Source: an uncultured Acidobacteriota bacterium (GTDB lineage Bacteria; Acidobacteriota; Thermoanaerobaculia; Gp7-AA8). From it: a stretch of 64,000 nt of DNA. Each line of letters begins with the position of its first letter. Position 1 is the stretch's first letter. Of this stretch, positions 8,737 through 17,493 are shown one piece after another. The translations under genes and the position numbers were made by a program. The notes beneath the pieces are model-generated. The model saw nothing but the letters and a program-made list of their open reading frames with translations. It did not search any database and was not told where the DNA came from. The stretch lies in the NCBI GenBank assembly GCA_963741955.1, contig CAVUKB010000005.1:512001-576000 (forward strand). Reading direction: 5' to 3'.

Positions 8737-11130
8737 TCAGTGGAGGGTGGTGCCCGTGAGCGCTCGCACCACGTCCGAATGCGGCTCCGAGGCGGTGATG
8801 GGGACGTCCAGCATCATCCCGAGCTGCTTGAGATGTGTGAAGGGGCTTCCCTCATAATGGAGCTTCGCCGACGGATTCGCAGGGCGGAAGCCGAAGTCGA
8901 CCAGTTTCTGCTGTGCGGGAACGTCGAGAAGAAAGTCGTCCAGCGCGCCGGCCGCGACCTTCTTCTCCGGCGTCACACCGGTGTCGTCGAGGACGTAGAA
9001 CGTCGCGTCGTTCCAGATGTTGATCTTCGGATAGACGACACGCACTTTCCCCCAACGGTCTTCGGCATTCTGCATCTTCGTGATCGCGTCACTTTCGTAG
9101 ACCAGCACACCGTCATACGCAGAGGGCCCTCGCACGACCATCGAGTCCATGATCTCAGTGCTGCTCCCCTCTGCCTGGATGGCAGGCGAGAAACCCTTCA
9201 GCCAGCTCAGGAAGTTCGGATCCTCCACTTCGGCAAGGGAGAGAGCCTGCTGATTCCTGAAGTGTTCGGCGGCGACGACCATCACCCCGGTCAGGCCACT
9301 GAGGTGCTTTGCCGGGTCGCCGATGGCGAATGTGAAGCGTCCCCAGTCGGGCTTCCCCGCGATGGTCGTCCAGCCGTCTTTCTGTCCAAGGGCATCGTGG
9401 ACATGATCGAACGTGACGCTGCCATAGTGTTTCACGAAGGCCTGATAACGGTCATCGAACATGACCACCACACTCGGTGTGAGCGAGATGAGATCCGCCC
9501 GGACGATCGCATCACGCCCGTATTTCGAACGGAACTCCTGCTCCAGGTCCTCCCGGAAGAGATTCGACGGTGCAATCCACGCGTCGATCTCGCGTTTGTC
9601 GTCGAGGATCACCTGGTGCGCCTGACCGGACGGAAGCTGGACGAGGTGAACGTCGATGTTGCGGCCTTCCGGCGACTTCTCGAATTCCGCCACCGCCCAC
9701 TTCAGCCAGTCTGCGTTTTCCCGCCCATGCGCCACCGCGATGCTCACGCGGTTCGTGGTCCCGGCCGCGCCGGTCATAGACGCCTCGGTCGCGGAGCCGC
9801 CACCCTTCCCCCGCTGCCAGAGGATTCCTCCGATCGCCACGAGTACGACGACGATGATCGCCGCGATCATCAGCGGCGGGATCCTGCGAGCCGGCGTGGA
9901 AGGTTTCGGCTGCTCGATCACGGTCGGCGCGTCGAGGTCGGACGTCTTCGGGACCGACGAGAGCCGCGCCTTTTCGCCGACCTCGCTCGCGTCGCGAAGC
10001 TCGGCGAGTCTGCCGAGGAGAGGTGCGGGCGCTCCGGTGGTCTCCCCGAGAGATTCACGACAGAGCTTCAGCGCTTCGAGGAGGGCGAACGCATCGACGA
10101 ATCGCTGCTCGGGATCCTTGTCGAGGCACGTGTCGAGGAGCACCACGATCGCGTCACTCACGTCCGGCCTCGCATCGCGAATCGGAGTGTGCGGGAGCTG
10201 GATCGTGGCCAGCATGATCGATGCGGACGATTCGCCGGTGAACGGCGCATGGCCCGCCAGGAGCGCATACAGAGTCGCGCCCATTCCGAACACGTCGGCA
10301 GGTTTCCCTGCTTTGCGTGCCGACATCGCCTGCTCCGGAGCCATGTATCCCGGCGTGCCCATCCCGGTCTGTGTTCCGGTCAGCGACTGCGCGACCTCCT
10401 CGGTGCGGGCGAGCCCGAGATCCGCGAGCTTCGCCTGGTCGAACCGGAGCTCGTCTGTGCCGCGTCCGTACGGGATCATCACGTTGTCGGGCTTGATGTC
10501 ACGATGGATCACACCCAGACGGTGTGCCGCCGCGAGTCCCTCCGTCGCTGCAATGCAGATGTCGAGCGCCGTCGCCTCGTCGAGATGCCGCCCTTCGCGC
10601 GCCGCCGCCTTCATCGCCGCTCCGGCGGAGACACCCCTCACGTACTCCATTACGAGATAGAAGAGTCCCGCTTCCTCGTTGACGTCGGTGACCCGCACGA
10701 GGTGGGACGACTCGATGTTCGCCGCGATCTGAGCTTCACGAATGAAGCGGTCCACCAGCTGCGGCTGGAGCTCCGCCAGATGAAGAGGGAGAACCTTGAC
10801 CGCGACCTCCTGCCGCAGCAGGGGTTTCACTCCGCGGTAGACGGCGCCCATTCCCCCCTGTCCGAGTTTCTCGAGGATCGGGATTCCGCCGAGCGAAGGG
10901 ATCTCCTTCCCATCGTATGTGACGCGCGGAACGTTCAGCAGGAGTCTGTCGGACGAGAGATCCTCGAGGATCGGAGGAAGTCCCGGGATGGGAGTGGGTC
11001 TCCCTGCAGGCACGACGGTCTCCGCACCACCCGACGCTTCAGGAGTGGGAGTGATTTTCGTCTTTTCCGGATCGTCGCCCGCATGACCGGGTTTCGGGGT
11101 TTCGTCCATCGGGTTCCGTCCTTCCGGCAT
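8737..11130 (-). CDS. Hanks-type Ser/Thr protein kinase with a TM helix and an extracytoplasmic solute-binding-like domain
   Basis: LGQGGMGAVY, VAVKVL, HRDIKPDNV, DLGLAR and GTPGYMAPEQ; TM IAAIIVVVLVAIGGILW; C-terminal ~330 aa resembles a substrate-binding protein. Start may be 11109. Confidence 0.88.
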   Translation of the reverse strand: MPEGRNPMDETPKPGHAGDDPEKTKITPTPEASGGAETVVPAGRPTPIPGLPPILEDLSSDRLLLNVPRVTYDGKEIPSLGGIPILEKLGQGGMGAVYRGVKPLLRQEVAVKVLPLHLAELQPQLVDRFIREAQIAANIESSHLVRVTDVNEEAGLFYLVMEYVRGVSAGAAMKAAAREGRHLDEATALDICIAATEGLAAAHRLGVIHRDIKPDNVMIPYGRGTDELRFDQAKLADLGLARTEEVAQSLTGTQTGMGTPGYMAPEQAMSARKAGKPADVFGMGATLYALLAGHAPFTGESSASIMLATIQLPHTPIRDARPDVSDAIVVLLDTCLDKDPEQRFVDAFALLEALKLCRESLGETTGAPAPLLGRLAELRDASEVGEKARLSSVPKTSDLDAPTVIEQPKPSTPARRIPPLMIAAIIVVVLVAIGGILWQRGKGGGSATEASMTGAAGTTNRVSIAVAHGRENADWLKWAVAEFEKSPEGRNIDVHLVQLPSGQAHQVILDDKREIDAWIAPSNLFREDLEQEFRSKYGRDAIVRADLISLTPSVVVMFDDRYQAFVKHYGSVTFDHVHDALGQKDGWTTIAGKPDWGRFTFAIGDPAKHLSGLTGVMVVAAEHFRNQQALSLAEVEDPNFLSWLKGFSPAIQAEGSSTEIMDSMVVRGPSAYDGVLVYESDAITKMQNAEDRWGKVRVVYPKINIWNDATFYVLDDTGVTPEKKVAAGALDDFLLDVPAQQKLVDFGFRPANPSAKLHYEGSPFTHLKQLGMMLDVPITASEPHSDVVRALTGTTLH

Positions 11131-14633: not shown

Positions 14634-14844
14634 TGCCAGCCCTCTCGCTGCCGGACATTGCAGAAATCGTTCACACGTCCCGGCCGCAACGCGGGAGGCT
14701 CGCCTGAATCGCTCCGCCAGCTTCCGTGAAGCCTCGGTCACGAACCGCGTTCCGGAGGCGGGAACCACGTCGATATGACGGCGATCCACGGTATGATCTC
14801 GGCGCGCGTACTGTTTACCCGGAGCGCTTCTCAGGAGAACCGGA

Positions 14845-15423
14845 ATGGCAAAAACACCCCCACCGAAACCGCAGTCGACGGCCAGAGGCTTCGCAGCCGG
14901 ATTACTCGTCGCGGCACTGATCGTGGCGATCGGCCTCGCAGTGGTCTGGTTCGTCCGGCGAGGACAACCGCAACAAACCGAGCCCGGACCGATGGCGACC
15001 GCGACCCCTCCCGCTGCACCTGCGCCATCCCCGACCGTGCAGCTTCCTCCGCCACTCCCTCCGGAGCCGTCGGAAGCGGAGATGGAATCCGTGCAGCGCA
15101 TCCCTCCCCCCGAACTTCAACAGAAGCTCGCGGACGGAACGGCGATCGCGATCGACACCCGGGACGTCCAGTCGTACGAAGAAGGGCACATTCCGGGAGC
15201 GCTTCAGATTCCGCTCGGATTCGTCCAGGGTGAGGTCCCGTGGTTCCCGAAGGACAAACTGATCGTCACGTACTGTACGTGACCGCACGAAGAGACGAGC
15301 GCCCGTGCGGCGCTGATCATTCGCGACGGTGGACTGACGAACGTGGCGGCTTTGGGCGGCGGCTTCGACGCCTGGAGAGCGAATGGATTCCCGGTCGATA
15401 CCGGGCTTCCGCAAAAACAATAG
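14845..15423 (+). CDS. Membrane-anchored rhodanese-like protein, probable selenoprotein (in-frame TGA at 15280-15282, motif YCT-U-PHEETSARAA)
   Basis: N-terminal TM helix and Pro-rich linker, then IDTR...YEEGHIPGA. The frame continues past TGA with PHEETSARAALIIRDGGLTNVAALGGGFDAWRANGFPV (canonical rhodanese C-terminus) to TAG 15423. Confidence 0.82.
15298..15314 (+). promoter_or_regulatory. Candidate bacterial SECIS hairpin of the rhodanese gene
   Basis: AGCGCC-CGTGC-GGCGCT stem-loop starts 16 nt after the UGA, with G in the loop. An alternative CCGCACG/CGTGCGG pairing is also possible. Confidence 0.5.
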
Positions 15424-15450
15424 AGACCTGGCCCCGGATCAATCATGGCC

Positions 15451-15508
15451 CCGGATCATTCACGGGATTTCTGATGCGGAGCGCGACGAAATCCCTCGAA
15501 TAGTCCGG
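15451..15508. repeat. Dispersed palindromic element, copy 1 (related copies at 40201-40258 and 48091-48136)
   Basis: CCGGATCATTCACGGGATTTC...GAAATCCCTCGAATAGTCCGG imperfect hairpin. Confidence 0.75.
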
Positions 15509-15641
15509 GCTGGGAGTCTGCGCGAGAGGAACGTCCTCGGGGCCTTTCCGTCTCTCGATCCGTCTGCTGTTTCAATCCGACTCTCGCCTCCCGGAGAATC
15601 GCACCCTAAATTGCTCGTGACGAGAACCGACGGAGGAATCG

Positions 15642-16857: not shown

Positions 16858-17493
16858 TCAACTCTGTCCCTTCCGCTTCAGTTTCACGACCCGGTAGACG
16901 TACCAGATGAAGAGGAGTCCGATCACGGCCCAGGTGATCGGCTGGACGTAATCGTGGATCTTCTTGAAGTGCTCGCCGAGCAATCGTCCACCCCATGCCA
17001 GAGCGGTGTTGAACGCGAAGGTCCCGACGAACGAGTAGAAGGCGAACGGTAGAAACGACATTTTCGAAAAGCCGGCCGGGATCGAGATGAATGTCCGGAT
17101 CGCAGGGATGAGGCGTCCGGTGAGGACCGCCAGGCCACCGTGCCTGTCGAACCACTTCTGAGCTTTGTCGAGATGCTTCGGCTCCATCGCCAGCCAGGCG
17201 CCGTGCCGCTGAACGAAGTGACGGAGTTTCTTCTGCGGAATCTTTCTTCCGACGACGTACCAGCCGAAGCTGCCGAGGTTCGCGCCGATGGTCCCGGCGA
17301 GGATCATGATCCAGACGGAATCGTGTCCGGCCGTGGAAAAGTAGCCGGCGAGAGGCATGATCAGTTCGGAGGGGATGAAGACGATGATGTTCTCGGCCAG
17401 CATCAGGACCGCAACCGCGAACCAGCCATGGGCCTCGACGAGCCCTGTAATCCAACCGCTCACGCCGCCACCGTCTGCCAGCGCTGTGCCCAC
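16858..17493 (-). CDS. DedA family membrane protein
   Basis: ENIIVFIPSELIMPLAGY, GRLIPAIRTFISIPAG. Confidence 0.92.
   Translation of the reverse strand: MGTALADGGGVSGWITGLVEAHGWFAVAVLMLAENIIVFIPSELIMPLAGYFSTAGHDSVWIMILAGTIGANLGSFGWYVVGRKIPQKKLRHFVQRHGAWLAMEPKHLDKAQKWFDRHGGLAVLTGRLIPAIRTFISIPAGFSKMSFLPFAFYSFVGTFAFNTALAWGGRLLGEHFKKIHDYVQPITWAVIGLLFIWYVYRVVKLKRKGQS

Follow-up and report, generated by a model that had tools for sequence, protein, structure and literature searches.

The window analysed here is a stretch of 64,000 nucleotides from an uncultured Acidobacteriota bacterium (Thermoanaerobaculia, Gp7-AA8; assembly GCA_963741955.1, contig CAVUKB010000005.1, positions 512,001 to 576,000), and in it we have studied a gene for a rhodanese with an N-terminal membrane anchor, whose reading frame contains a TGA codon within the rhodanese domain. 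The open reading frame (ORF) 14845-15282 reads to ...KDKLIVTYCT and then meets the TGA at 15280-15282. The same frame stays open for another 46 sense codons (PHEETSARAALIIRDGGLTNVAALGGGFDAWRANGFPVDTGLPQKQ) before the TAG at 15421-15423, and with the TGA read as selenocysteine (Sec, U146) the product has 192 residues. An initial annotation of this DNA, made from the letters alone, had placed the ORF stop (...IVTYCT*) in the active-site loop of a rhodanese and the C-terminus of that rhodanese in the 46 codons behind it; the Pfam domain (PF00581), which spans residues 88-179, and the translation as far as the TAG agree with both statements. We conclude that the UGA at 15280-15282 is almost certainly decoded as Sec by SelB and tRNA-Sec, directed by an RNA hairpin at 15298-15314. 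The features of the locus are collected in Table 1.

Table 1. Features of the rhodanese gene and its surroundings, in window coordinates (TM, transmembrane; bSECIS, bacterial selenocysteine insertion sequence; AF2, AlphaFold2; pLDDT, predicted local distance difference test)
Feature	Position	Strand	Basis
ATG start of the rhodanese selenoprotein gene	14845	+	AGGAG at 14833-14837, Shine-Dalgarno-like, 7 nt 5' of the ATG, read from the sequence
Full coding sequence, 192 aa, ATG to TAG, TGA taken as Sec	14845..15423	+	Pfam Rhodanese spans the TGA; homologues conserved on both sides
True stop, TAG	15421..15423	+	Frame translation
Predicted N-terminal TM helix, residues 15-39, hydrophobic core 16-34	14887..14961	+	AF2 DSSP helix; Kyte-Doolittle mean 2.83 (residues 16-34)
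Pro/Ala/Thr-rich linker, residues 40-87, short helix at its end	14962..15105	+	pLDDT 61-67 at residues 41-60
Rhodanese domain, residues 88-179	15106..15381	+	PF00581 E 7.3e-15; AF2 pLDDT 94-98; Foldseek 3tp9_A
TGT, Cys144, predicted canonical rhodanese catalytic position, directly after the central strand	15274..15276	+	AF2; profile alignments; conserved in 20/20 loci
TGA, almost certainly selenocysteine U146, C144 + 2	15280..15282	+	TGA 17/20, Cys 3/20 aligned loci; genomic Sec machinery
Core bSECIS hairpin (candidate), stem AGCGCC/GGCGCU, loop CGUGC	15298..15314	+	Folding; conservation in 17/17 TGA forms
Weak sigma-70-like promoter match, TCGATA-16-TATGAT, divergent intergenic region	14770..14797	+	9/12 consensus positions; consensus match only

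The relatives of the gene provide the first line of evidence. A six-frame search of the genome of origin and 40 relatives gave matches in 36 of the 41 genomes (a tally that includes G022 and G030, from which no loci were drawn), and a single in-frame TGA is present in the majority of the strong ones. Within the organism's own family and order all 27 genomes match at E <= 0.001, and 26 of them at E <= 1e-18; in a sample of the phylum, 10 of 71 genomes match the window protein at E <= 1e-18. For 20 genomes, the own genome included, the best locus was taken into an alignment, and the column of U146 was checked in these 20 loci. It holds a TGA in 17 loci and a Cys in three (L027, L033 and L038). 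The aligned proteins of the 19 relatives are 35-53% identical to the window protein, and the persistence of the TGA at one column in 17 of 20 genomes despite this divergence therefore excludes chance. The TGA forms share the motif Y-C-[TSA]-U-[PTQ]-x-E, and the Cys forms read YC[TS]CPAEE[TS]SG (P0003-P0007, L027 and L033) or YCTCPHDEAAA (L038). The initial annotation had given YCxCPxExxSA for related proteins and had anticipated that Cys and TGA would pair at this column, as they do. The residues behind the TGA are conserved as protein, with G163, G172, G173 and W177 invariant in 28 sequences, and neither the Pfam domain nor the AF2 fold is complete without residues 3' of the TGA.

It had also been foreseen that annotation pipelines would call such a gene truncated. 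The public protein for the locus is P0002, a 145-residue fragment, and at least nine database relatives end in the same way: among the 17 aligned with P0002, nine end at ...YCT, five are full-length Cys forms (P0003-P0007) and three are divergent. Two database relatives, P0010 and P0013, bear the name 'Thermoanaerobaculia bacterium' in NCBI sources. When 1.84 billion representatives were searched with the family profile, the CxCPx[ED] motif turned up in 15 of the best 150 clusters; all 15 representatives are single-domain proteins, 14 with an N-terminal hydrophobic anchor from the start and one, P0162, that begins inside the anchor. Proteins with multiple rhodanese repeats made up the bulk of what this search returned. 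At its top stood P0044-P0048, metagenome proteins of up to 2327 residues in which 8-16 tandem rhodanese-like stretches lie behind an N-terminal anchor and which have no bearing on the Sec question.

The second line of evidence is the hairpin, AGCGCC-CGUGC-GGCGCU. Its distance from the UGA is 15 nt; the 16 nt first reported is off by one base, which has no consequence, and 21 nt separate the UGA from the loop. For the 60 nt that start at the UGA the folding energy is -24.1 kcal/mol (z = -2.06 relative to shuffled sequences). The bSECIS model, as the Fig. 2 legend of a 2026 review (PMC13188914) gives it, has a loop of 3-9 nt, a stem of 4-16 bp, a G in the first two loop positions, 16-37 nt between UGA and loop and a minimum free energy of -7.5 kcal/mol or lower. 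Within these limits fall the 5-nt loop, the 6-bp stem, the spacing and the folding energy of the core hairpin (-10.7 kcal/mol), and the loop has, as the model requires, G at position 2, which is followed by U. All 17 TGA forms contain (G)AGCGCC-NGUGC-GGYGCU(C), with a stem of 6 bp here and 7 bp in most relatives. In codons +5 to +10 the third positions are 94-100% conserved, the Ser codon being AGC in every case, the Ala codon GCC and that of the next Ala GCG; elsewhere in the rhodanese domain, invariant residues are encoded by two to four different codons. At this place the three Cys forms carry other residues (SG[HY]A, AAAE), and the hairpin sequence is lost in them.

Third, the genome (G000; 5.4 Mb, 99.1% complete) encodes tRNA-Sec, SelA, SelB and SelD, all above curated cut-offs, and these were the genes that had been named beforehand as a check on Sec insertion. 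The tRNA-Sec scores 69.5 bits to RF01852 and is called SeC by ARAGORN, with anticodon TCA, and the profile scores are 475 bits for selA, 321 bits for selB (351 with its C-terminal piece) and 360 bits for selD. The selD gene (contig C7, locus L018 position 1528) has an in-frame TGA of its own (...TTGGUACKLG...), i.e. it encodes a Sec-containing SelD, and the hairpin 3' of that TGA differs from the one in the rhodanese gene. A sequencing error had been raised as a possible source of the TGA in the rhodanese gene. In an independently made assembly of the probable source DNA run, a contig is identical to the window over 14800-15480 at a word depth of 11.6; this is weak support, because both probably go back to the same sample and are then not independent. 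The TGA at one column, the conserved hairpin and the Sec machinery together bear out the Sec insertion proposed in the initial annotation.

The AF2 model, built on a 28-sequence alignment, has a mean pLDDT of 89.4, with 94-98 over residues 71-190. It comprises the anchor helix (residues 15-39), a low-confidence linker whose length varies among relatives, a strand at 139-143 (LIVTY), a loop at 144-149 (C-T-U-P-H-E) and a helix at 150-161. The best Foldseek match is 3tp9_A (E 4.7e-10), followed by BH2092, 6mxv and Alr3790. In profile alignments the Y-C of the family pairs with the Y-C of the CxxGxRS loops in 6mxv and 3tp9, and these targets are two residues shorter afterwards. C144 follows the strand 139-143 directly and is thus the first loop residue after the central beta-strand, the place of the canonical cysteine. 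In the model, then, C144 would be the canonical rhodanese cysteine and U146 a residue added at +2 within the six-residue cradle loop.

A CxU rhodanese whose bSECIS follows the UGA directly is already catalogued and compatible with textbook knowledge, and is not a new kind of system. The tables of PMC13188914 and PMC9312934 list a rhodanese selenoprotein 'form 3' (COG0607 form 2) of the CxU type, with the NCBIfam model NF041203 (rhodanese_LYCAU), and trace it to Zhang and Gladyshev 2005 (Bioinformatics). By the rule in PMC9312934 under which a shared domain and a shared motif make one subfamily, the rhodanese domain and C144-T-U146 make the window protein a member of the CxU type. It resembles form 3 in its single rhodanese domain, its Y-C-x-U motif and its in-frame bSECIS directly 3', and NF041203 is its best NCBIfam match (E 2.6e-20, profile positions 15-124 of 126). 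However, its score with Cys in place of Sec, 72.4 bits, stays below the curated cut-off of 115; in the genome search, which treats the TGA as an unknown residue, about 6 bits are lost and 66.4 remain. We therefore assign it to the broader CxU type alone and do not count it as an NF041203 equivalog. The 126-position model does not cover the TM anchor and the roughly 50-residue Pro/Ala tether of the window protein, and its cut-off is reached in none of the 41 related genomes (range 59-96 bits) and in none of the 71 genomes of the phylum sample (best 107.4 bits). Given that the CxU type was already listed, the find is less novel than the title of the initial annotation, which spoke of a hidden selenoprotein, suggests. 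Anchored or exported CxU forms may also already be listed in Zhang and Gladyshev 2005 or in the supplements of the reviews. Our literature search found no paper that joins Thermoanaerobaculia with selenocysteine.

Other rhodaneses differ more. Forms 1, 2 and 4 of the rhodanese selenoproteins have UxxS or UxxG motifs, and one of them is the 'rhodanese-related sulfurtransferase' (COG2897) listed in the Sargasso Sea study (PMC1088965). They share the rhodanese fold and a Sec in the active-site loop; in these forms, judged by motif only and read against the canonical CxxGxR loop, Sec apparently stands in place of the canonical Cys, whereas here the Cys is kept and Sec is extra at +2. BH2092 (3nhv, 3o3w) and Alr3790 (3hix, 3ilm), solved structures of unassigned function, adopt this fold as well (Foldseek E 3e-9 to 5e-6) but contain no Sec; BH2092 has a Cys-to-helix stretch of equal length and a second Cys (YCWGPACNG). 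The single-domain sulfurtransferases GlpE, PspE and YgaP likewise share the fold but lack Sec. Each of these three has one active-site Cys; YgaP is membrane-anchored and PspE periplasmic.

As regards location, the initial annotation had called the protein extracytoplasmic. This is plausible in view of the anchor, the linker and the signals of relatives, and the location itself is still inferred. In the window protein three Lys or Arg residues precede the 19-residue hydrophobic core (16-34) and two follow it. Across 28 anchored members the N-terminal side has the higher Lys/Arg count in 18, an equal one in six and a lower one in four; with the N-terminal amine added, it is higher in 24 of the 28. 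The 20 aligned loci tell more than the charges do: by eye, 15 of them encode TM anchors, four encode lipoboxes (LTGC, LAGC, LVSC and AVAC in L032, L039, L040 and L041) and one, L042, a cleavable signal peptide (ASA-Q). The genome of origin also holds, outside the window (contig C5, about 101115-101714; L043:1222-1821), a paralogue of 200 residues in a lipoprotein form with an in-frame TGA. Its lipobox reads LVGC, its linker is of the Thr/Ala/Pro kind and its motif is AYCTUPDEETSARAA; the hairpin after its TGA is identical to that of the window gene, and its score to NF041203, 95.5 bits, is below the cut-off. Because relatives carry lipoprotein or secretory signals, and with the TM helix and Pro/Ala linker of the window protein, we favour an exported, tethered domain: the N-terminus would lie inside, and the rhodanese domain would be held on the outer face of the cytoplasmic membrane.

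We propose, and consider very likely, that the gene encodes a 192-residue selenoprotein with one TM helix, a Pro/Ala tether and a rhodanese domain with the loop C144-T-U146-P-H-E. The initial annotation had proposed a sulfur/selenium transferase. In our reading the rhodanese scaffold may carry, in its Cys/Sec pair, a site with two chalcogens for redox reactions or sulfur relay. The U146 selenolate would attack a sulfane sulfur, a polysulfide or a disulfide, and C144 would resolve the adduct to give an intramolecular selenenylsulfide, which would then be re-reduced. The loop is acidic: E149 (Sec + 3) is present in all 17 TGA forms and E150 in 13 of them, and Lys or Arg occurs at loop positions 145-149 in none of the 20 loci. 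The thiosulfate:cyanide sulfurtransferases of the TST/GlpE/PspE type have a cationic or neutral six-residue loop, for instance CRKGVT. An acidic loop devoid of Lys and Arg suggests that thiosulfate is unlikely as the preferred substrate. A recent precedent for a Sec enzyme acting on polysulfide is MccSep (PMC13510729).

Several observations weigh against this proposal. Across the 17 TGA forms no pair of the hairpin shows compensatory covariation, and two G-C to G-U switches are the only changes of pairing; because the stem is almost invariant, this neither supports nor contradicts the fold, and the case for the hairpin comes from conservation beyond what coding needs and from its loss in the Cys forms, not from covariation. 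A scan of 14700-15600 against Rfam, at E up to 10, gave chance-level matches only and no SECIS family. No RNA sequencing run holding the stretch of the rhodanese gene was found, hence no transcript was seen. The neighbouring genes differ among the 20 loci, and none of them points to sulfur or selenium: those in the window are of the alpha-amylase family, phosphofructokinase (PFK), DedA/VTT and BrkB-like, and among 81 candidate ORFs flanking the loci of the 19 relatives and of the same-genome paralogue no shared partner emerged, but only scattered flanking pairs (YceI, RtcB/archease, class II aldolase, BON and Crp, each seen twice). The neighbours are therefore uninformative, and the chemistry has to be inferred. 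As to topology, the charge bias is modest (3 vs 2 in the window protein), the signal peptides were classed by eye, and where relatives have the CxU module fused to DedA, the linker in front of it is strongly basic.

In a rival view the protein is a genuine selenoprotein with a cytoplasmic domain, its anchor being N-out or re-entrant, and would act like the CxU modules fused to DedA or to a Na+/H+ exchanger. Such fusions exist in the relatives. Three VTT/DedA-rhodanese fusions (L049 in G024, L050 in G016 and L051 in G002) have an in-frame TGA, the motif VLYCTUPNEASAARVA and a near-identical hairpin, and a protein of 562 residues (L054:1495-3180, minus strand, G072) joins Na_H_Exchanger (PF00999) to a C-terminal rhodanese with an in-frame TGA, the motif IAYCAUPNEATSARVA and a similar hairpin. 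L052 is a secreted form of the CxU module, of 137 residues, with a near-identical hairpin; the CxU rhodaneses of the phylum at L052-L054 all have a hairpin closely similar to that of the window (AGCGCC-N5-GGCGC). The DedA fusions, from soil Acidobacteriota, have the Y-C-T-U-P-x-E module in common with the window protein, their hairpin is similar, and they belong to the same genome group; they differ in being multi-pass VTT proteins with a basic linker, whereas the window protein stands alone on a single anchor and has lipoprotein paralogues. From the sequence of that linker, the CxU domain of the fusions is probably cytoplasmic, and the module would then not be intrinsically extracytoplasmic. 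In the window protein itself two Arg directly follow the TM helix (VRRG), the charge bias of 3 vs 2 is small, and a stand-alone DedA/VTT gene lies 1.4 kb downstream. Against a cytoplasmic domain, a lipoprotein or secretory signal replaces the anchor in five of the 20 loci and in the same-genome paralogue, the Lys/Arg bias of the family favours N-in (18 of 28 vs 4 of 28), and the lipoprotein forms share the long Pro/Ala/Thr tether. On this evidence we regard a cytoplasmic location as unlikely. The stand-alone DedA/VTT gene (window 16858-17493, minus strand) is separated from the 3' end of the rhodanese gene by the phosphofructokinase gene, and its nearness, given the fusions in relatives, may or may not be meaningful.

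An exported selenoprotein might also bind or detoxify soft metals or chalcogen oxyanions (Hg, Cu, selenite, tellurite, arsenite) and take no part in sulfur transfer or thiol redox. Selenium-substituted rhodanese has reportedly been studied before. A Cys-x-Sec flanked by conserved Glu could chelate soft cations, and rhodanese-type proteins have been linked to the handling of selenite, as in the context of ExtH (PMC5877670). Yet no metal-resistance or chalcogen-reduction genes adjoin the gene in the 20 loci examined, and the several paralogues per genome suggest a housekeeping role, which makes a role in metal or oxyanion handling improbable.

That the TGA is a genuine stop, and the gene a 145-residue rhodanese remnant or a pseudogene with a relic frame 3', is scarcely credible. 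Gene callers do end P0002 at 145 residues, and TGA is the commonest stop in the genome, where it ends 869 of 1219 long ORFs with high G+C at third codon positions; genome-wide reassignment of TGA is therefore excluded. But the TGA is kept in 17 of the 20 genomes, the 46 codons behind it are conserved as protein and closed by a proper stop, a product of 145 residues would be without the helix and strand that complete the fold, and the hairpin is conserved in a genome that has the complete Sec machinery. Read-through of the UGA by other means, be it near-cognate suppression with Trp or Cys or a locally altered code, has nothing specific in its favour and is less credible still: the homologues show Cys and never Trp or Gly at the column, TGA is a normal stop genome-wide, the SECIS-type hairpin is correctly spaced and conserved in the TGA forms only, and tRNA-Sec and SelB are encoded.

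Two further features of the window may be recorded. Just 3' of the TAG of the rhodanese gene lie two direct copies of a 12-nt sequence (GGCCCCGGATCA) with 5 nt between them (15430-15458), and no intrinsic terminator was found on the plus strand just 3' of this stop. Farther away, a gene on the minus strand (8737-11130) encodes a protein of 797 residues with a Ser/Thr protein kinase domain (residues 86-344) and a C-terminal extracellular solute-binding domain, SBP_bac_11 (465-749).

What does the presence of such a selenoprotein mean for these bacteria? The CxU rhodaneses of the order, with several paralogues per genome in tethered, lipoprotein and secreted forms, could make up a periplasmic, selenium-based relay for sulfane sulfur, polysulfides or disulfides in soil Acidobacteriota. 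We advance this tentatively and hold it to be doubtful; to our knowledge no extracytoplasmic selenium-based sulfur relay has been described for Acidobacteriota. On a firmer footing, the annotation of the locus is corrected: the product would have 192 residues with Sec in the active site, and would not be a fragment of 145. The gap is systematic, for the NF041203 model caught none of the related genes in the 41 related genomes and the 71 genomes of the phylum sample, most of which genes carry a TGA, and because the model misses them the public databases are full of fragments that end at ...YCT. Natural Sec/Cys pairs, together with targeting variants of the same module (anchor, lipoprotein, secreted, DedA fusion, antiporter fusion), make the family a convenient system for study, and one question that it could address is why a second chalcogen at rhodanese Cys + 2 repays the cost of Sec.

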